64,000 nt of DNA from a virus (Duplodnaviria > Heunggongvirae > Uroviricota > Caudoviricetes). Of this stretch, positions 10,366 to 63,356 are shown piece after piece. Both the position numbers and the translations under genes were made by a program. Every line of letters begins with the position of its first letter. The first letter of the stretch is position 1. Location: the IMG/VR virus record IMGVR_UViG_3300028591_000112, positions 31,934 through 95,933 of that record, one strand, 5' to 3'. The notes below the pieces were generated by a model. It did not search any database. It had not been told where the DNA came from and worked only from the letters and a program-made list of their open reading frames with translations.

Positions 10366-12651
10366 ATGGCAGTATTATATACAAATGATAATGGGTATTC
10401 ACCATATTATACCTGTTCGGTTAGTTATGGTACTGTAACTCGTAGTGGTACTACAGTTATAGTACCAAGTGTAACTTTAACAATGACTCGAGGAGACGGT
10501 TATTGGACAGGTAATAGATTAGCATATTGTGCAGGTAGAACAACTAATGGAACTGATATTGCTAATAATATTACAATTAAAAATAGTGGAGCTCAATCAG
10601 CTTCAAGTTATAGTGTAAATATTGGAGATATTTCTTATACAAATAACACAAGTACTTCTGTACATTTATGCGTAAGAGTAGCTTCAACAGGTGGTAGTAG
10701 TACTTGGGGTAATTTCCAAGGTAATTCACCAGTAACAGTATTTGATTCAGATATTTCATGTCCTGCCGCAAATCCTAGCTTTACAGTTCAACCATCTGCA
10801 ACAGCAATTGATGAAACATCAGTAAGTTTAAACTTGGGTTCTGTTGATATTTCAAGTTATTTATATTATAAAATAGGAAGCGGAAGTTGGAATTATGCAA
10901 GTACAAATCCAGTTACAATCAGTGGATTAACTGCAGGTACTTCTTATAGTTTGACAGTTCAAGCACGAAACACTGCTGATACTAGTTTAACTACTAATTC
11001 AAATGCAGTTTCAGTTACTACATATGCTAACCCTAGTATATCTAGCTCTGGTTGGCCAGGTGATATTACGATGGACGCTGCAACTAAAAAAGCTAATTTT
11101 ATATTTACTAATCCCTTAGGTAGAACCATTACAATGACTGCTACTGTTGGTAGTTATACTGTTAGTGGAACAACAAATGGTACAACAGGTAGTTTAACAT
11201 TAGATTGTGATGCTATTTATAATCAAATTCCTACTGATACAGAAGCAACTATTACTTATTCTGCTTTAGGAGTTAATAGTAATGGGAAAAAAGTAAGGGC
11301 ATCTGAATCATATGCTAAACCAACAGTTTTGATTGCAGGATTTGCTTGACAGGCTGTCCATGATAGTAGTTTTGGTAGTGTATTTAGTAATACAGGAAAA
11401 GTAATTCAAAATCATAGTTATATTAAAGTAAAACATACTGGTTCATCCGCATCAAATTTTAGTACTATTGGTACACCAAATAAAGGTGCTTCTAGTATTA
11501 CAGGAGCCACAGTTAGTTTTGATGGTAAAGCGGCGCAAACATTAACAAATAGTTATGCGGCATATGTAAATACTTCAACTAAATATAGTTACTCAATAGA
11601 TCAAATGGCTATTATTACAATTACAGATAGTAGAGGATATACCAACAGTGCCAATGTTACTATTCCATTTGTTGCATATAGTAATCCAGTAGCGAGCATT
11701 TCCGCAAATAGAGATGGTGGTTTTAGTGAAAATTTAGTTTTAGTTTTATCAGGGACTTTTAGTAGTTTAGATGGATATAATTCAATTACTGCACTACAAT
11801 ATAAAGTAGGAAGTTCAGGAACATGAATATCTGCTACTGTTGTTAATAATAGAGCAGAAATTACTACTGAAACATTAGCGCCATCTGATTCTCAGGTTTA
11901 TTATGTAAAAGCCACTGATGCGACATCAACAGTTAGTATGGAAGCATCTACAATAGTTGATATAGGTCAAGCAATTGCATTTATTGATGATAGATATAAT
12001 GCAGTTGGTATAAATTGTTATCCTGGTAGTGCTCAAAAAGGTTTAGTATTATCTAATGATAGTAGTATTTATATTGGAACTCAAGATTTAGTTACAGCGT
12101 TAAAAGCACAAATTATTAATACTATTTATCCTGTTGGGGCTATTTATATGAGTTTAGATAATACTAATCCAGGCACTTTATTTGGAGTAGGAACTTGAGA
12201 ACAAATAACAGATAAATTTTTAGTTGCTGCAGGTACTTATTTTACAATGAGCACTCCTACTGGTGGAGCTAGTAGTGTTACTTTACAAACGGCTAATTTA
12301 CCTTCTCATAATCATAGTTTTACTGGATCTACTGTTAGTACAGATAGTCAAGGTTCACATGAACATTGATTTTATCCTAAGTTACAATGGCAAAATAGTA
12401 GTGTTCAATCAAATGGTAATGTAGTTCGTACAGCTAGTGGTTGGGCTCCAGATCTTGCGGGAAATTTAAGTGGTTCAATGACAGTTAATTATAATAGTTT
12501 ATCACAAGGAACTGGTTATGCTGGCGAACATACGCATTCAATAACATGCGGAGGTACTGTAGGTAATACAGGTAGTGGAACTGCATTTAGTATTATTCCA
12601 CCTTATCAAGTTGTTTATATTTGAAAAAGAGTTAATGATCCAACTCCTTAA
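10366..12651 (+). CDS. tail fibre / receptor-binding protein with FN3 domain and C-terminal phage tail-collar domain
   Basis: RBS aaaggagag. Fragments 10366-11349, 11605-11826 and 11938-12198 are in one frame joined through TGA codons; TAA at 12649-12651. FN3-like segment (VSLNLGSVD...ISGLTAGTSYSLTVQARN). C-terminal LPSHNHSF...GEHTHS motif typical of the phage tail-collar (MdpB-like) domain. Confidence 0.6.
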
Positions 12652-31280: not shown

Positions 31281-32714
31281 TTATTCATCTAAGTCTTTAG
31301 TTTTTTTATCTACAATATTTGCTAATAATGTTTTTATATTCACACCTAAACTATCTTCAGCTACTTTTAATACTTTGTCTATTTTTTGAGTATTGTTTTC
31401 AATTAATTTAGTAGATTGGTCACCATACATAGTAATATTATCTACATTAGCTAATGGAGCAGAAACTTCTTTTGCAACTTGTGGTAATGCAGTCATAATC
31501 ATTTCAATAACTGATGCTTCACCCATTTTCTTTTGAGCTTCAGCTTTTTTCTCAATACCTTCAGCTTCTGCTAATGCTTTAGCTTTAACACCAAATGCTT
31601 CAGCTTCAAGAATAGCTCTTTTACCTTCAGCTTCAGCAAGCAACTTAGCTTTAATACCTTCAGCCTCTCTTATGTTTGCTTCTTTCTCAGCTTCTGCACG
31701 AGCAATTCTAGCTTGTGCCTCTGCCTCTGCCGCCTTTATTGCACGAGTCTTATCAACTTCTGCTTGAACTTCTGCAGCATATTTTTCTGCATCTGCTTGT
31801 TTTTTGATTTCAGCTTCAAGTTCTTGTTCTTTTAATGAAACTTCTCTTTGCTTTAATAAAGTAATTTTTTCAGTTTTTGCAACTTGAGCATCTACTTCAT
31901 TTTCATTAATAGTTTTTTGTTGAATTGCTTTTTGAATATTATATGCGGCATCTGCATCTGCTTTTTTTCTATCTTGTTCAATTTGGAACTCCGCCTTTTT
32001 AATTGCTAGATTTTTTTGTTGTTCTGCAATTTTAGTATCTGCGGCAGCACGTGCACGCGCACCTTCTTCATCAGCAACTGCTTCCGCAATTTTAATTTCT
32101 TTATTAGCTTGTGCTTTTGCAATTTTAGCATTTTTTTGGATTTGTGCTAAATTATCAACACCTAGATTTACAATAGCATCATTCTCATCTGTTACATTTT
32201 GAACATTTAAATTTACTATTTCAAGACCTAATTTTGCTATGTCATCAGTGGCATTTTCTTGTATCTTTTGTGAAAATAATTGTTTATTATTAACTAAATC
32301 AGTTAATTTCATTTGTCCTATTATCTCACGCATATTACCTTCAAGAATTTGTTGAACATTATTTGCAATATCTTTTGTTGTTTGATTTAAGAAATGCTTA
32401 GCTGCAATTTGTATTAATTCATTATTTGTTGAAATTCTTACATTTGCAACAGCATCAACATCAACATTAATAAAATCATTTGTTGGAACTTTATTTGCTC
32501 TAACGTCTATTTGAATAAGTTTTAAAGGTATTTTATCTATTCTTTCAAAGAATGGTATTCTAAATGCGGCCTTGCCTGTAATAACTCTAGGCTCTTTCTT
32601 AATACCAGATATTAAAAATACCATATCGGGTGGGCATTTTACATAACTAACAGCAATTAAAATTCCCACTAAAATAATTACTGCTATAATAATTCCTAAT
32701 AAAATAAAACTCAT
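31281..32714 (-). CDS. SPFH/band-7 (flotillin-like) membrane protein
   Basis: Intact 477-aa ORF. N-terminal TM helix, SPFH region, then a long Ala/Glu/Lys-rich coiled coil typical of flotillin/YqiK. Confidence 0.6.
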   Translation of the reverse strand: MSFILLGIIIAVIILVGILIAVSYVKCPPDMVFLISGIKKEPRVITGKAAFRIPFFERIDKIPLKLIQIDVRANKVPTNDFINVDVDAVANVRISTNNELIQIAAKHFLNQTTKDIANNVQQILEGNMREIIGQMKLTDLVNNKQLFSQKIQENATDDIAKLGLEIVNLNVQNVTDENDAIVNLGVDNLAQIQKNAKIAKAQANKEIKIAEAVADEEGARARAAADTKIAEQQKNLAIKKAEFQIEQDRKKADADAAYNIQKAIQQKTINENEVDAQVAKTEKITLLKQREVSLKEQELEAEIKKQADAEKYAAEVQAEVDKTRAIKAAEAEAQARIARAEAEKEANIREAEGIKAKLLAEAEGKRAILEAEAFGVKAKALAEAEGIEKKAEAQKKMGEASVIEMIMTALPQVAKEVSAPLANVDNITMYGDQSTKLIENNTQKIDKVLKVAEDSLGVNIKTLLANIVDKKTKDLDE

Positions 32715-38095: not shown

Positions 38096-39188
38096 CGTTT
38101 TTTCCTTATGTTACCATAAGCACTGACTATATCTTCTGCCTTGCGGCAGCCTTCTGCTTCGAGCTGGTGCTTATCTCCAGCCCTACTCCCTTACATTCAT
38201 CAGGGATAGTCGATACACTTTATTTTAAAATTTCAATAATATAACCTTCAATTTGAGGTCTTTCACCTTTTGCTATCTTAGCAATTATTTGTCTACTAGG
38301 TAATTCAGGCATCTCTCTTTCTACTTCTCTATAACTTTTAAATATTTTAATTTCATTAGTAAGAAGTATTGTAATTTTAATTTGAGTTCCTTTTCTTCTA
38401 ATATTTGTAGATACTGTATATTCATTAGTATAATCATCATTTTCATAAGCAATTAATCATTCATCTCTAAATAATTTTTTAATTTCATGATTACATCTTC
38501 TTGAAATGAACTGATGATTATTTTCATTAAAGAATTGTTGCATTTCAGATTGACTTCCAAAATGATATTCTTCATTAGTATTTATATTTTTACATTTAAC
38601 TCCAGTAGCATTTGGATTGTTAGCTCCTAATTTTGAAGCTCTTATTTTTTCACTTATTGTAGCAAGTTCTTCTTTAGTCTTACTCTGATAAGTATTTCCG
38701 CCACTTTTATTTGTAGCATCTGTTTCATTGTAACCATTCTCAATACTGTTATAATATCTAATCCAATACTGTTCCTTTTGAGTTAATTCTTCTTGAGTTT
38801 CTGCAGTATCTATTATTTCTGCTTTAAAATTATCTACTCCATAATATCTTAATGCTCTTGCAAAATGAGTATCAATAATATTATTTAAAGCATCGTTTTT
38901 ATGTCTATTAAATCTTTCTTCTAAAGTTCTTATTGTTTGTCCAATATAAACTTTATTATTTTTTAAATTTGTTATTTTATAAACTATCATAATAAAATCT
39001 CCTTTTCTTTTTCACCAATATATGAAAAATTGTACGGTACATTTTATTAATTTTGTTCATTTTTTTATTGAAATTTTAAAATCTTAGCACGGTCTCATCC
39101 TATCTTTAGGACCTAACCGTTAGCGGCGTTTCCGCCACACCCATTAAGCATGGTTCAAAAGGTTTTAGATGAGCTGTAGTTTACACTT
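38096..39188 (-). other. group I intron (IA-like) interrupting nrdD at STMG|CRT
   Basis: 5' exon ends in U (ATGGGT). Intron ends in G (aaaaaacg) before TGTAGA. Splicing restores the conserved NrdD TMGCR motif. Contains a T4 td-like core GUAUCGACUAUCCC and carries a GIY-YIG ORF. Confidence 0.7.
38220..38990 (-). CDS. GIY-YIG homing endonuclease within the nrdD intron (256 aa)
   Basis: RBS aaaaggagattttattATG. VYKITNLKNNKVYIGQT...YWIRYYNSIENGYN (GIY-YIG). Continues through TGA at 38457-38459 into a C-terminal putative DNA-binding extension; TAA at 38220. Confidence 0.75.
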
Positions 39189-41061: not shown

Positions 41062-43688
41062 TATTACCGCCCTTTCTATCATGTCTTAATTGCATATTTC
41101 CCTTTTCATCTATTTGTTCAATTAAATATATTTGATGTGTTTGTGTCTTTGTATAGGTCTTAGCTACAAAAGTATCATCTCTTCTAAATCCAGTTATCAT
41201 TAATTTTGTTCCTCTTGTGAACCAGCCTTTTTCTATAACATGTTTTGTTCCATCTGCTTGAAGTTCACTTATTTGTCTATTATACATAGCAAAATAATCT
41301 TTAGTAAATTTAATTGGAACAATACCATCTGGAGTTAATAAAGTGACACTATTTTTTGTATCATTTTTATTAATAACAGTTCCTACTATTTTAAATGTTT
41401 TAAAAATAGGAATTTCTTTACCATTTCTTTTAAACATTTGATCGACTTGCGGATTAGGGGATAAATTAAAGAAATCTGTTAGTCCATATTTTAAATTATT
41501 TACATGAGATAATTCATGTTCATGATAATAGAAACATAAAGCTTCCATCTCCCATGCAGATAAATTGCCTTGTGCATATTTATCTCATGCTTCTTTAAAT
41601 AATAAAATATTAAACTTTTTAAGCATTTCCGCTTGATGTTCTTGTATATATGTGCGGGCTTCCGCCATTACATCTTGATAAATTTTATCCCATCTTGTTT
41701 GCAATATACAAGTTAATCCATTAATTACTTCTAATTGGTCTATATCAAAATTTGCATTATAAAATGTTTCACATACATTATTAAATACATAATATTTTCC
41801 AACTTTTTGATTTGCTTTTAAATATCTATTAAATTTAAAAGTTTTCTTTTGGAACTCTAATTCTTCAGGAATTAAATCATGTTCTAATAATCCATTAAAA
41901 TTTTGTAATGTTAATCTTTTCTTTGCATCGCAAGTTTTACTTAAATAATATGTCATTGTCCAAAAACGTGGTTCTACATTTGCGGCAGCAGCATATTGTT
42001 TATCTACTTTATCAAAAGCTCCTGCTTTAATCAAACTAATCATTGCACTTTTATTTAATGGACATCTATTAATAAAATCTGCTATTCCAATATATGGACG
42101 TCCGTTTTTAATTTGTTCTATAATAGGCCCACCAATATTACTTAATGCCTTCATACCAAATAAAATTTCATTATTATCTACATCTGGCTCAAAACTATAA
42201 TCAGATTTATTAATATCAACTAAACTAACTTTAATTCCTTTACTTATAATATCACTTAATGCTTTTGCAATTTTACTATAATCTGTTGTTTTTTCTTTCT
42301 TTTCTACAATATATCCATCTTCATCTTCTTCAAAATCGCTATCTTCTTCTAAACTTCCGCTATTAACTATTAAACATGCGGTATTCCAATATATTGGGTT
42401 CCATCTTGTTGCTACATACATAGTTTGAAAACCTATAAAACTATATGCTAATGCGTGAATAATTGAGAATGAATATCCCATTTGAGGACCAACTCCGCAA
42501 GTTCAAACATAATGGCCTAAACAAGGACTTGCCGCTTGATCTAATACCTGTTGTCTTAATGCTGGAATTTTACTCATTTGTTTCTTTCCAACTATTTTAC
42601 GTGCGGCATTTGCATCTTTTAATGAGAAATTACATATATGTTCATCCATTAACATTCTCATTAATTGCTCTTGACTTGGCGGAACTCCGTGAGAGCTCTT
42701 AAAATATGGCTCTAATGTTTTTTGTTCTTCTTTTGTTAAACCATATTCATCCATTTCTTTATACCATAAATTAATATTATTTTTAAATCTAATATATTTA
42801 TCCATTGGAGATTCTTGACCTTTTTCTGCTGTCATTAATCTCATTAATCCATTTGCATCAGCCATTTCCATTATATTAGATGGCTTAATTTTCTTAGCGG
42901 CTTGACTTCCTACGTCACTATCAAATTGAAAAATATTTAATACATTATTTTCTTGAAGAACTTTCCAATATTTATCTTCTTCAATAGGAAGAACATTTGG
43001 ATGAAAATATTTATTATAAACTTCTCTTAAAGTTAAATCATTTTCTATTTCTCCATAATCTTGTAACATTCTAATAGCTTCCGCTAATTTATCTTGAACT
43101 TCAGTTACTAAAAAGTCATATTTAGTCATTCCGCATGCTTCACACATATGTAAGTCATATGCAGTGATTACCTCTCCTTTTGGAGTTCTCATAAACGAAC
43201 CAAATTCATACGGATCTTCATCAAATAATATAACTCCTGAGGCATGACTACTTCTTTTATTTACTAGTCCTTCTATTCCCATCATTATATCTAATAAACC
43301 AGGGAATTGATTAACTTCATTAATAAATGTTTTATTAGGTTTTCTATCTTTGTCTTCATTTCCATATACAACATCATTTAAAGACCATAAAAATCCACGT
43401 TCACTAGGAATTAATGAACTTAAATATTGAGCTGTATCAACATCTATTCCATCAGGAAAATCTTCACTACGATATCCGCGGCAAGCGGTTAATATAGTTG
43501 AACGAGTTCCTTCTGTACCAAAAGTTGCTATTAAAGTACAACCTAAATTTTTTCTACTTATTTCATTTATATCACTATTAAAATTTTGTCCTCTTTCTTT
43601 TTTAATTTCATTTAAAATTTTAGGACGCTTACTAGGACATAAATCTAAATCTATATCTCCTAATTCTACACGCTCTTTATTTAAATCA
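41054..43688 (-). CDS. dnaE: DNA polymerase III alpha (DnaE-type), exon 2
   Basis: Starts (F)DLNKERVELGDIDLDLC (the PDIDIDF motif). Contains HASGVIL and a C-terminal OB fold. ORF-track fragments 42503-43285, 41585-42481 and 41054-41548 are in one frame joined by TGA. Confidence 0.7.
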
Positions 43689-44707
43689 CGTTATCCACCA
43701 TTTCTGATGGCGTAGACTATATCTTATTCTTTAAATATTTTCTATAAAATAACCACAGTAATATCCATTTCCTGCCCTAGCAGCTTTTAATCCAGCTCTT
43801 GCGCTTTCTACTTTAGTAGTTTTACATATTTTATTTTCTACAAATCATTCAGCACAATCTTTTACGGAATCAAATTCTTTATGAAAATCATTTTTACTTA
43901 TCATAATTCTTTGTCCAGCTGCTTGTCTAAAACTAAATCTTGGAATATTATTTTGATTTAATATATCATCTACTGTTGAATGATTAATTCCAAAATTTAA
44001 TGCTGTTTTTCTTGCACTTCTAGTTTTATAATAATCTTCAATAATTTCTTTATTTGGAAGCATTTTATGGTATTGTTGACCTCCAAATGTTTCATTATAT
44101 CCTTTTACAAAACTATTATAATAATCTATCCAATAAATTTCCGCCTTATCTAATTGTTCATAAGTCTCTATATTATCTTGAAGAACTTCAAAAGTAAAAT
44201 TTTCAATTCCATATTTTCTCATAGCTTTATATAAAGTTTTGTTAATACAATTTGGATGATTGATATTTATATTTCTTTTATGTTCTTTTCATCTTTCTTC
44301 AGCAGTTTTTATTGTTTGACCAATATAACATTTATTATTTATTTTATTTGTTATTTTATAAATTAACATATTAATCTCTCCTTTTCTATTATTATATGAA
44401 AAGTAGATTAATATTTTTCTACCTTTTTGACCAAAGTGGTAGAAAATATTTAAAGATTTTCGCACTTCGAGTAGTAACTCATCTTCTACTCTACTCCTTT
44501 CGGATAGTCGTTACACCTTGCGGCGACTGCCGCCTTGGCACTGGATTACCTTCAACTTTACTTGCTAAGGTTTCCCTGTTAGCATAAGAATTAATTAACC
44601 ATTTCCTGTTAAAACTGTTCGTTTCTTACACACCCTTGAGTAACAAGGTTCACGAAATTTTTTATACTATACATTACTGTATAGGGCACCTATTTCTTAA
44701 AAGTTCT
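43689..44707 (-). other. group I intron interrupting dnaE at KWSLPFWRF|DLNKERV
   Basis: 5' exon ends CGCTT (U). Intron ends ...gataacg (G). The joined exons give a continuous alignment to the DnaE consensus KYNLLFERFLNPERV. Core GUAACGACUAUCCG (+ strand 44491-44514) resembles the T4 td intron P7 region. Confidence 0.6.
43724..44369 (-). CDS. GIY-YIG homing endonuclease within the dnaE intron (about 215 aa)
   Basis: RBS aaaaggagagattaatATG. LIYKITNKINNKCYIGQT...YWIDYYNSFVKGYN. Two in-frame TGA codons (44222, 43845). TAA at 43724. Confidence 0.7.
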
Positions 44708-46023
44708 AAGCGCCAGAAAGGTAAACTTCATTTGATTGGATCAAGTTGAGTTATTCCCAATAAATAATGATTAAGACCAGAACAACTTGAACCACGGCCT
44801 GCACCAACGATGCTGCCGCACTCCCAGAATAAATCAACGTAATGTTGTAAAGTTACTGGATAACTAAACATATTAGTTCCTAATTTTTCACTAATTGTTT
44901 GCTTTATATCAGCTTCTTCTTCTAATCTATCTAAATACTCTTGATTAAATTTTCCTATTTGTTGAAGTTTATTAATACATTCGTTAACCCAATATCTATT
45001 AACTTTATCATCTGAGTTTGCTAATTCATTTAATATTGGATAATTACTTATTCCTGTATATCCTTTAGGATAATCTTTTACTTCAACATGCGGAATTGTT
45101 TGTGCATGAGCTAAATTATAATTTTCTATTTGATTATATATTTCTATACTATTATTATATAATTCATTAATAAAATCTATATTAAATTCAGATGCATTTA
45201 AATTATTTATTATATCATTATCATCTTGAAGATAAGCAAATTCATAAAATTCATCCACTTCACGTTCTCCAAATTTACTATTTAAATATGCTTTGTGAAC
45301 ATATCTATCTTCTTTTTTAAGATAATGTGCATCTGTTCCAATAACCATTTTTAAACCAAATGCTTTTGCTATTGCAGGTAATCTTTTATTTACTGCAACT
45401 TGTTCTTTGCTACTTCCAGGCGCACACTCTATATAAAAGTTTTGTTCTCCAAAAACTTTTTTACACCATAATAAAAAATTTACTATATTACTATGTGCGG
45501 CAGTCGCGCCTTCGCTATCACCCGTTTGTTCACATTTTATTAATTCTAATGTATTGACAGATAATTCTCCACCTAGACATGCTGTTGTTCCTATTAAACT
45601 ATTAGGATATTTTTTTAAAATTAATTCTAAATCATCTTTTAATGTTGGAACCCTTTCTAAACCTCTATCCCAATAACTATTTAACCAAGCTAAAGAGGAT
45701 AATTCTCTTAAAGCTCTATGTCCTTCTTTATTTTTTGCTATTAAAATAAAGTGATAATATCTTTGTCCTTTATCTCTTGTATCTGTTAAATATATTTCAT
45801 TTCCTAAAGCAATTTTAAAATCAGGATGTTCTTTTTGAATTTCTTGTTGATAAAAGTTTAATTCAGGATGAGAACAGATTGCTTCATGGTCTGTGATTGC
45901 AATTCCTTTTAATCCAAGTTCAATAGCACGGTTTACTAAATCTTTAGGTCTATTAATTGAGTCAAGTAAACGAAGATTTGAGTAATAAGTGTGAGAATGC
46001 ACTTCGAAACGAGATACTTCCAT
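44708..46023 (-). CDS. dnaE: DNA polymerase III alpha (DnaE-type), exon 1 (PHP domain)
   Basis: MEVSRFEVHSHTYYS...GIAITDHEA is the PHP domain N-terminus. 431 codons without TGA, then TGA and a short tail up to the intron. Confidence 0.7.
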
Positions 46024-62218: not shown

Positions 62219-63356
62219 CGTTTTCCCTTATATTTCTATAAGAACTGACTATCTCTTACTCTCTGAGTTTGTCATCACTCTTCTTCGAGCACTCCATTTC
62301 GAACTGCGTATCAATAGCAGCCCTACTCCCAGTCTAACCCGGGATAGTCGATACATGAGTTAATCTACATTTTTATAAGTTTCTCTTTTTATAATTGCTG
62401 CAATAGAACTTTCAGATAAATTATATTTTTCTCCTAATTCTCTATAACTAACAACTCCTTTTTTATAAGAATTTCTTATTTCTTTTACTTGGACATTAGT
62501 AAGTTTTGCATTAGTATGTCTTACCTGTTCTTTGTTTGGAATATTTCCAACAGTGACATAAGTTTGACCTAAAACTATTCTTTTAAAAGTTTGTTGATTT
62601 GAATATAAATCTTTAAAATCTTGATAAATTTCTTTTATTGGTTCTCCATCAATATATCTTTGTCTAATATCCCAAACTTGTTGATTTGTTAGTTTTGCTC
62701 GAGGATGATTTTCACTCATTAAAGATTTATTTTGTTCCCTTGTTTTTTGTCTTTTTAATTCGGTTTCTTCAGAATAAATATTTGGACTCCAGTATTGTCC
62801 ACCTTCAGTTGAATTATATCCATTTTTAAAAGTATCAAATTCTTTTATATATTTAATTTCTAAATCATCTAATTCTTTTTCTTCACATAGTTTTAATATA
62901 ATTACTTCAAAATTATCAATTCCATATTTTCTAAGAGCTTGATAAAACTTAGTATTATAATTACAATTATTTTCATTCTTATAATCTACTAAATGATGAC
63001 TTTGAAATCTTTTTCTAATATTTTTGCTTTGTCCAATATATTTTTTATTGTTTATTAAATTTACTACCATATAAATTCCACTATTAGCTGGTAGATTTTC
63101 TATATTTTTCATATTTATCTCTCCTTTGTCAATAATATATGAAAAATAGTTTTAAGTATTTATATATTTTTGTCCGTTTTTAGTATTTTAGATTAACATT
63201 TTCACACGGGATTACCTTCGCCTAAACATATTTTGACATATATGTGTAACGGTCAGGCTTCCCCGTTAGCATACATTTCTGTACACCCCACTGATAAGTG
63301 GTTAGAAGTGTAGAGGCAAATATTATTTCGGTATAGCCTTACGCTATCCTAAGTCT
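62219..63356 (-). other. group I intron interrupting gyrB at PVRG|KILN (TOPRIM)
   Basis: 5' exon ends AGAGGT (U). Intron ends ...gaaaacg (G). Core GUAUCGACUAUCCC and CAGCCCTACTCCC are identical to the nrdD intron. Carries a GIY-YIG ORF. Confidence 0.65.
62360..63112 (-). CDS. GIY-YIG homing endonuclease within the gyrB intron (250 aa)
   Basis: RBS acaaaggagagataaatATG. GIYMVVNLINNKKYIGQS...KYIKEFDTFKNGYN. TAA stop, no TGA. Confidence 0.75.
   Translation of the reverse strand: MKNIENLPANSGIYMVVNLINNKKYIGQSKNIRKRFQSHHLVDYKNENNCNYNTKFYQALRKYGIDNFEVIILKLCEEKELDDLEIKYIKEFDTFKNGYNSTEGGQYWSPNIYSEETELKRQKTREQNKSLMSENHPRAKLTNQQVWDIRQRYIDGEPIKEIYQDFKDLYSNQQTFKRIVLGQTYVTVGNIPNKEQVRHTNAKLTNVQVKEIRNSYKKGVVSYRELGEKYNLSESSIAAIIKRETYKNVD

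Follow-up and report, generated by a model that had tools for sequence, protein, structure and literature searches.

A mobile group I intron of the T4 td type probably interrupts the DnaE-type polymerase gene of a TGA-recoded phage

The DNA analysed here is a stretch of 64,000 nucleotides (nt) from a phage of the Caudoviricetes, positions 31,934 to 95,933 of the IMG/VR record IMGVR_UViG_3300028591_000112. The whole stretch is called the window below, and all coordinates refer to it unless a contig is named. Its gene for a DnaE-type DNA polymerase, dnaE, contains an insertion of ca 1 kb, located 9 codons upstream of the catalytic motif GDIDLD. Sequence comparisons support the assignment of this insertion as a group I intron with a GIY-YIG homing endonuclease gene, which splits the polymerase next to its catalytic Asp motif. 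We estimate the probability that positions 44708..43687 are a mobile intron of the T4 td type (IA2-like) in the dnaE gene of a TGA-recoded phage to be roughly 93%. An intron had already been proposed here in an earlier reading of the DNA (called the original prediction below), with splice sites at 44707 and 43689, and these turned out to be wrong by 1 nt on the 5' side and by 2 nt on the 3' side.

The limits of the intron are given by relatives that lack it. A scan of viral contigs (IMG/VR) for dnaE yielded 132 relatives, 80 of which were kept (77-96% amino acid identity), and nearly all of these have an uninterrupted 816-nt match. Every uninterrupted relative that could be parsed, at least 70 in number, reads ...LPFWRYLNKERVELGDIDLD... 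(...PFWRYLNKERV...; PFWRYLNKERVELGDIDLD). Contigs L015 and L017, for example, read TGGCGTTATTTAAATAAAGAGCGTGTAGAA where the window has TGGCGCT, then 1,022 bases, and then ATTTAAATAAAGAGCGTGTAGAA; the region of the insertion in the intron-less L015 is ...TTCTGGCGTTATTTAAATAAAGAG.... The only join that reproduces the intron-less reading is that of an exon 1 ending in ...UGGCGCU with an exon 2 starting with AUUUAAAU..., and the window sequence spliced in this way is collinear base for base with the intron-less alleles of at least 70 relatives. Since these alleles read WRYLNKERV, the intron has to start at 44708, directly after U44709, and to end in G43687. The corrected junction, WRY|LNKERV, aligns without gaps to YorL of SPbeta and to the polymerases of Phass-1, Staphylococcus phage SPbeta-like and Enterococcus phage EF1. 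The same intron was found at the same dnaE site in 18 other phage contigs, and all of the orthologues that are readable to the 3' splice site (16/16) end in G and follow a U.

The window has a G+C content of 28.6%, and all genes around the dnaE intron are on the minus strand. The long reading frames in this DNA need TGA to be read as Trp, and open reading frames (ORFs) of 2,206, 1,413 and 1,214 codons are then obtained. Counted over ORFs of at least 250 codons, TGA is used 106 times in the window and TGG 141 times; the corresponding numbers for dnaE are 3 and 15. One of these TGA codons, at 44730-44728, is located six codons before the intron and is TGG in 75 of the 77 parsed intron-less relatives and TAT in the remaining 2. 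The dnaE gene is without any TGA in 43 of 66 relatives. A tRNA scan of the 64-kb window found no tRNA genes, suppressor or other.

Translation with code 4 gives two frames, 46023→~44709 and ~43686→41054, that flank the GIY-YIG ORF. Splicing joins them to a product of 1,316 amino acids (1,319-1,344 in the relatives), with U44709, the final base of exon 1, as the first base of a Tyr codon. The spliced polypeptide has the PHP domain, the palm with the catalytic Asp motif, the fingers and the HhH domain in the order of DnaE, and the Pfam matches are PHP at residues 8-200, DNA_pol3_alpha at 357-632, finger at 661-825 and HHH_6 at 923-1002. The junction, at residue 438/439, falls inside the DNA_pol3_alpha match, and it is also crossed by the alignment to the best solved relative, DnaE of Thermus aquaticus (2hpi, E = 7e-57). 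The original prediction of a DnaE-type polymerase that is split next to its catalytic motif is thus confirmed. Among cultured phages, those of the SPbeta-like group have the most similar polymerases, which are of the YorL type (about 42-44% amino acid identity).

The intron family was searched with the 19-mer GTAACGACTATCCGAAAGG, which is present in 69 viral contigs, 18 of them with the intron at this dnaE site, and adding a search with a Q-element pattern gave just two further members. Alignment A1 contains 14 non-identical versions of the intron (that of the window and 13 others), with the ORF swapped for a tetraloop where present and with the structure written by hand. Of the cells in this alignment 97.0% are paired, compared to ca 40% when the partners are slid by 1-3 columns. 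A compensatory change involving both sides is found in 39 of the 85 pairs, and such values are reached by none of 500 shuffles. RNAalifold, used blind to the hand structure, proposed the same P1, P2, P3, P3.1, P3.2, P5, P6, P7.1, P7.2, P8, P9.0 and P9; the P7 pseudoknot cannot be drawn by this program. Covariation supports P1, P2, P3, P5, P6, P7.2, P8, P9.0 and P9. In the P3-P9 core every helix can be placed, with P3 crossing P7 to form the pseudoknot. The group I fold that had been predicted is therefore complete and supported by covariation, and most of its helices were recovered independently.

The two ends of the intron are tied to its structure. At the 5' splice site, the U44709·G44690 wobble is invariant (14/14), and changes in the Arg codon of the exon are matched by changes in the guide sequence, the combinations of exon and guide being GGCGCU/GGUGCC, GGAGAU/GUCUCC, GGCGUU/GACGCC and GGAGGU/GCCUCC. 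That is, relatives with the Arg codons AGA, CGU and AGG have the guides GUCUCC, GACGCC and GCCUCC, respectively. A P10 helix is plausible as read from the sequences, as AAAU at 44695-44692 could pair with AUUU at the start of exon 2. At the 3' end, relatives have GUG/CAC in P9.0 in place of ACG/CGU, and this covariation fixes the position of the terminal G directly after the helix.

Two other assignments were considered for P3. The pairing of UUUCG with the CGAAA inside AUCCGAAAGG was dropped since the compensatory changes (C-to-U/G-to-A and U-to-C/A-to-G) point to GUGCGAAAAUC; the AUCCGAAAGG site corresponds instead to the P7.1 mini-hairpin. The Rfam alignment has its P3 on the 3' strand of P3.2, with mismatches, and this was also rejected, P3.2 being a local hairpin with 6/6 pairs covarying. 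A minimum free energy fold of a construct with the ORF deleted gives P1, P2 and local hairpins, and is uninterpretable alone.

The P4-P6 domain holds a td-like, Q-like element, AAUCCAGUGC. For P4, a bulged register was proposed by RNAalifold. The R and S strings AACGACUAU and AAGAUAUAGUC match the core strings UAACGACUAU and GAGAUAUAGUC of T4 td at the sequence level only. It had been predicted that the core resembles the P7 region of T4 td, and indeed GUAACGACUAUCCG at 44514-44501 matches UAACGACUAUCCC, the 5' strand of td P7. Peripheral helices between P7 and P3', like P7.1 and P7.2 here, mark IA-type introns, and by its td-like layout, formal database subgroup criteria aside, the intron is best described as IA2-like. 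P8 is a helix of 14 bp that encloses the whole endonuclease gene. In L115 it is replaced on both strands, by UCUCCAAC/GUUGGAGA, and in L142 it is closed by a loop of 4 nt.

The ORF is optional in this family. It is missing in L142 (317 nt) and in L105 and L148 (both 345 nt), and L138 is a truncated version of 749 nt. In L104 and L137, the loop of P6 in this intron is extended by an insertion of ~110 nt, and the whole intron of L104 has a length of 1,148 nt. The coordinates of all features are collected in Table 1.

Table 1. Positions in the window of the dnaE gene, its intron and the elements of the intron. Paired strands within one row are joined by "with".
Feature	Position	Strand	Evidence or remark
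dnaE, whole gene, TGA = Trp	46023→41054	minus	
dnaE exon 1 (PHP domain and palm start)	44709..46023	minus	code-4 translation; Pfam PHP, DNA_pol3_alpha; intron-less relatives fix junction
dnaE exon 2, AU UUA AAU... (completes Tyr codon, then LNKERVELGDIDLD) to stop codon	41054..43686	minus	
Group I intron, 1,022 nt, td-like (best described as IA2-like), terminal (omega) G43687	43687..44708	minus	
P1 exon strand GGCGCU	44709..44714	minus	100% paired; two pairs compensatory, tracking Arg codon (CGC vs AGA vs AGG)
Internal guide sequence GGUGCC (P1 3' strand)	44685..44690	minus	alignment A1, RNAalifold
P2 hairpin CUAUACA-GUAA-UGUAUAG, GNRA loop	44667..44684	minus	6/7 pairs compensatory
P3 5' strand UUUCG	44653..44657	minus	pairs with 44462-44458; C-G to U-A in 4 sequences, U-A to C-G in 1
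Extra P3-P4 hairpins, provisionally P3.1 (44648-44634) and P3.2 (44628-44585; inner stem 44612-44595)	44585..44648	minus	13/16 pairs compensatory
P4-P5-P6 domain	44520..44579	minus	P5 and P6 covary
P4 ACAGG/CCAGU	44579-44575 with 44544-40	minus	one internal non-pair
P5	44571-67 with 44552-48	minus	
P6 hairpin GCGGC-AGUC-GCCGC	44533-44520	minus	
P7 5' strand GACUAU in R-like GUAACGACUAU	44504..44509	minus	invariant in family, partly since the motif is the search pattern
P7.1 CC-GAAA-GG	44503-44496	minus	2 pairs, invariant
P7.2 GAGUAG...CUACUC	44491-44469	minus	3/6 pairs compensatory
P3 3' strand CGAAA, within GUGCGAAAAUC	44458..44462	minus	two independent compensatory changes; RNAalifold
P8 5' strand CUUUAAAUAUUUUC	44442..44455	minus	14-nt perfect complement to 43742-43729
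GIY-YIG homing endonuclease gene, P8 loop, 212 codons and TAA	43731..44369	minus	Pfam, I-TevI alignment, PHROG
P8 3' strand GAAAAUAUUUAAAG	43729..43742	minus	
S-like element AAGAUAUAGUC: J8/7 and P7 3' strand AUAGUC (43720-43715)	43715..43725	minus	
P9.0 ACG (43713-11) with CGU (43690-88), P9 CCAUCA-GAAA-UGGUGG (43710-43695), terminal G43687	43687..43713	minus	

The steps of the proposed mechanism rest on established group I intron chemistry. The transcript would fold into the P1-P9 core, and a free guanosine bound in P7 would attack after U44709, which would be held in the U·G wobble by the guide GGUGCC. Next, the terminal G43687, placed by P9.0, would enter the same guanosine site, and the exons would be ligated to ...UGG CGC U|AU UUA AAU..., such that PFWRYLNKERVELGDIDLD and the intact polymerase of 1,316 amino acids are restored. 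The ligated RNA would accordingly read ...UGGCGCU|AUUUAAAUAAAG.... The endonuclease, encoded in the P8 loop with its own ribosome-binding site, would, by analogy with I-TevI, cut the intron-less dnaE of co-infecting relatives near the site, and repair of the cut would copy the intron in (homing).

It is important to note that a number of points weigh against this interpretation. At curated thresholds, Rfam gives no group I match in the window, and when positions 43400-45000 are searched at E <= 10, the matches are noise to miRNA/snoRNA models, with no group I among them. This miss is likely due to the 706-nt ORF in L8 and the extra P3.1/P3.2 hairpins. Two of the ORF-less orthologues match the full Intron_gpI model (RF00028), L142 with 47.4 bits (E = 5.6e-11) and L105, whose core is 93% identical to that of the window, with 46.5 bits (E = 2.5e-10), but these scores are still ~3 bits below the Rfam curated (gathering) threshold of 50 bits. 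As a check of the predicted group I intron, Rfam thus gives no match for the window copy, and significant E values with scores below the threshold for its ORF-less orthologues. Furthermore, P7 and P4 never vary, so they provide a sequence match and no covariation evidence; P7 is partly fixed by the pattern used in the family search, and P4 has a non-pair in 14/14 sequences. Should TGA be a stop codon for the host early in infection, translation would end prematurely in both genes, that of the endonuclease with 2 TGA and that of the polymerase with 3. Finally, self-splicing, cleavage by the endonuclease and the timing of its expression are predictions made from sequence.

Some of these points could also be taken to mean that the intron has decayed, such that it would not splice, or would depend on a helper, and that the dnaE copy would be a pseudogene or poorly expressed. 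The A·A mismatch in P4, the lack of an Rfam score for the window copy and the occurrence of ORF-less and truncated relatives, by which decay does take place in this family, would all fit such a scenario. The mismatch is, however, present in 14/14 members and is therefore a family trait and not damage, while all helices of the window copy are intact. Its 99.6% identity to the intron of L112 indicates that the transfer was recent. The endonuclease ORF is full length, with TGA at conserved Trp positions as its only in-frame stops, and dnaE is otherwise intact and the sole replicative polymerase gene seen in the window. We consider it very improbable that the intron is a decayed one.

Another option is that no splicing takes place at all, and that dnaE was divided by a free-standing endonuclease gene into two genes, each translated by itself, the products of which would assemble. 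It is known that some ribonucleotide reductase and topoisomerase genes of T-even phages are split into separately translated halves that assemble, and in GenBank similar cases are treated as two genes, namely dnaE_1/dnaE_2 of Staphylococcus phage SPbeta-like and the 'DNA polymerase subunit' entries of Moonbeam. In the window, however, the frame of exon 2 opens right after a TAA (43693-43691) and without a ribosome-binding site, and it has no ATG, GTG or TTG before GDIDLD, the first listed start (43285) being past the motif. In addition, the 383 nt outside the ORF form a complete, covarying group I core, and an RNA element of 317-345 nt is kept in the orthologues that have no ORF. A split into two translated halves is thus unlikely, and we judge it to be even less probable than decay of the intron.

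A comparably slight probability is given to an intron that is real but has the limits of the original prediction, 44707..43689. Exon 1 would then end in ...CGCUU and exon 2 start with UGAUUUA, the ligated sequence would be ...CGCUUUGAUUUA... and the product ...WRF DLNKERV.... With these limits the intron would still be preceded by a U and end in G, and the frame would be kept, but the limits are already refuted by the intron-less alleles, as WRFDLN is found in 0 of the more than 70 uninterrupted relatives, all of which have WRYLN. The claim that ...KWSLPFWRF joined to DLNKERVELGDIDLD gives a gap-free match to DnaE does not hold either, since there is a one-residue gap relative to Taq DnaE (wrfdlnkerv / ferf-lnperv), and the WRF|DLNKERV product is one residue too long also compared to SPbeta YorL, Phass-1, Staphylococcus SPbeta-like and EF1. 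Moreover, the last exon U in P1 would pair with A instead of G, the intron would end in A in those relatives that read ...AACACG|AUUU, and the covariation of P9.0 puts the terminal G at 43687. Two further candidates, a group II intron and an intein, were dropped: a reverse transcriptase and a group II match in Rfam are both missing, and the insertion does not keep the reading frame and, when read on in the frame of the exon, contains stops 12 codons in.

Returning to the group I intron with limits 44708..43687, its endonuclease gene had been predicted at 43724-44369. The start at 44369 is retained, while the 3' end is not, the TAA being at 43733-43731, inside the 3' strand of P8. The gene starts behind AAGGAGAG (44383-44376), which agrees with the predicted ribosome-binding site of its own, and the two in-frame TGA that had been noted are codons 27 and 175. 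Its product of 212 amino acids matches Pfam PF01541 (GIY-YIG) with 34.5 bits, the cut-off being 22.6, and the PHROG homing-endonuclease families with E = 7e-29. The N-terminal domain aligns to residues 5-91 of the I-TevI catalytic domain (1mk0/1ln0, E ~1e-6; 1mk0 E = 7e-7). In this alignment the conserved positions IY..YIG, R26, E77 and N92 are found, and the residues aligned to the Arg and the Glu that were mutated in two I-TevI crystal constructs are retained. Residues 106-151 have a weak match to a PHROG 'DNA binding protein' family (E = 2.5e-4).

Both TGA positions of the endonuclease are TGG in orthologues, which means that TGA encodes Trp in this protein, and W27, which is encoded by one of them, is aligned to the Trp of RWKRH in I-TevI. 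The third Trp codon of the gene is TGG. Compared to its paralogue in the nrdD intron of the window (see below), the N-terminal halves are 50% identical and the C-terminal halves unrelated, which is in line with modular enzymes that act on different targets. A motif, TTTTCATATA(A/T)T, is located 21-27 nt upstream of the ATG in all three intron endonuclease genes of the window (44391-44402, 39017-39028 and 63134-63145, all on the minus strand). The TTTTCATATA 10-mer occurs 7 times in the window, with 1.6 expected, and it was not called as a promoter by a sigma-70 scan. It might be a phage promoter or a part of a mobile endonuclease cassette.

Comparison with the flanking exons bears on the mobility of the intron. 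The introns of the window and L112 are 99.6% identical, compared to 76.6% (5') and 87.9% (3') for 900 nt of flanking exon, and in 8/8 pair comparisons the intron is more similar than the exons of this essential gene. At the same time, the intron is absent from most dnaE relatives. In L105 and L148 the final codons of the ORF are still present, so these introns arose by its deletion. Judged from these sequences, the intron has spread horizontally, and its conservation together with the empty sites and the ORF loss is what is usually seen when a homing intron invades, spreads and decays.

The in-frame stops of the endonuclease gene differ between its carriers. TGA occupies Trp positions in the genes of the window, L112, L121 and L122. 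L099, L102, L119 and L124 each have one TAG at a position that is Gln in relatives, and L108 has 5 TAGs, 3 of them at such positions; L093, L104, L115 and L147 have no in-frame stop. Only these stops were used, as the coding densities with codes 4, 11 and 15 are too noisy on short AT-rich loci to assign codes. The pattern suggests that one intron lineage resides in code-15, code-4 and standard-code relatives. One could speculate, although we regard it as rather doubtful, that the recoded stops are functional, in that they would delay translation of the endonuclease until decoding has been switched, or block it after transfer to a phage with another code. If true, differences in code could hinder intron homing between otherwise close phages.

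The original prediction had counted the dnaE intron as the second of its kind, but at least three such introns are present in the window. The nrdD gene (anaerobic ribonucleotide reductase) has a td-like group I intron at 38096-39188 on the minus strand, with a GIY-YIG gene at ~38990→38220. The inferred junction is STMG|CRTYNGSD, the limits being read by eye, and the core strings are GUAUCGACUAUCCC at ~38215-38202 and AGAUAUAGUC at 38134-38125. Here the ORF is upstream of P7, on the P6 side, unlike that of the dnaE intron. The third one, in a GyrB/topoisomerase gene, spans 62219-63356 on the minus strand and has its GIY-YIG gene at 63112→62360, an inferred junction MPVRG|KILNTQKA (limits again read by eye) and a td-like 3' core, GUAUCGACUAUCCC ... 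AGAGAUAGUC. Outside the window, the contig L142, which has one of the ORF-less dnaE introns, contains a further group I intron at 10676-10957, with 66.5 bits and thus above the Rfam threshold.

For the annotation, these results mean that the polymerase is one gene of 1,316 codons with an exactly known junction, and not two genes and a stray endonuclease. GenBank entries such as dnaE_1/dnaE_2 of Staphylococcus phage SPbeta-like appear to hide the same kind of intron. The family is seen at all stages of the homing cycle, that is, with empty sites, full, ORF-deleted and with a truncated ORF, in uncultured phages of gut or rumen. Within a single endonuclease lineage, the stop codon present appears to be the one that the resident genome has recoded, which makes the published idea of a code-dependent timing testable on a defined gene. 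Neither a new type of element nor a new mechanism is revealed.

One of the closest known systems is the td intron of T4, whose sequence was taken from a T4 record. The order P7 (ACGACUAU), P7.1, AGUA, P7.2, P3', P8, GAUAUAGUC, P9 with a GNRA loop is the same in the two introns, and the 9 bases of GAUAUAGUC, in the region of the P7 3' strand, are identical. The td intron also has a GNRA loop in P2 and a Q-like AAUCC.GUGC element, and both introns carry a GIY-YIG enzyme and reside in a DNA-metabolism gene of a phage. There are also differences. Whereas the ORF of td is placed in the loop of P6, that of the window intron is in the loop of P8. The extra hairpins P3.1 and P3.2 have no counterpart in td, while the long P9.1/P9.2 tail of td is missing here, P9 being followed by just 9 nt. 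The interrupted gene is dnaE instead of td, TGA is Trp in the ORF of the window, and the nucleotide similarity of the two introns is limited to the core motifs.

Intron endonucleases are known to target the DNA polymerases of phages, and group I introns with GIY-YIG or HNH enzymes are a typical feature of the phage genes for DNA polymerase, ribonucleotide reductase and terminase (PMC3984707); that introns are known from phage polymerase genes, as the original prediction stated, is thus already published. In the same gene family, Staphylococcus phage SPbeta-like (KT429160) and Enterococcus phage EF1 (MF001358) have insertions near the catalytic PDIDID, located 8-9 codons downstream of the window site, between ...RPEL and PDIDID. 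The element of KT429160 (L001 3246-3717) is ~470 nt long and unannotated; it shares with the window intron the GUGAAC-hairpin-GUGUG-hairpin-UGCUAAC module, GCAACGACUAUCCC and GAGAUAUAGUC, and has a GIY-YIG remnant, the ORF being lost. That of EF1 (L002 2695-3521) has an HNH endonuclease, which is annotated as 'Phage intron'. Rfam scored neither of these two elements. This second insertion site, after ...EL(G) and before DIDID, is apparently occupied in L105 and L148 as well, ~27 nt into exon 2.

In Bacillus phage Moonbeam (KM236246; L157 2465-3825), one of the SPO1-like phages (Herelleviridae), the polymerase is annotated as three 'subunits' that are split by two homing endonuclease genes. Its second polymerase intron is 81% identical to the window over 63 nt (P3.1-P3.2-P4), with the same extra hairpins and a td-like core, and this insertion has a weak Intron_gpI match of 29 bits. 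The polymerase is of family A, however, the ORF is on the P6 side, and the likeness is limited to a part of the ribozyme. As P3.1/P3.2 are present also in the Moonbeam and Staphylococcus SPbeta-like introns, these hairpins are a feature of an existing, poorly described subfamily of phage introns.

Finally, the part of the preprint by Borges et al. (bioRxiv 10.1101/2021.08.26.457843) considered here describes the 'Agate' phages, which are TGA-recoded, have genomes of ~127 kb and come from animal guts. The endonuclease of a group I intron in an early gene of these phages prefers TGA over TGG for Trp, and it was proposed that TGA holds back the endonuclease until the decoding switch (10.1101/2021.08.26.457843). 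The window fits that part of the description, which does not imply membership in the clade: related contigs are 100-145 kb, TGA is Trp, and the ratio of TGA to TGG is 2:1 in the endonuclease vs 3:15 in dnaE. In that part of the Agate account, the gene split by the intron is given no name and the ribozyme no description; in the window, in contrast to it, the replication gene itself also holds TGA. Measured against these sources, the finding adds one more intron to types that have been published, namely the group I introns of phage polymerases and the TGA-rich intron endonucleases of Agate phages.

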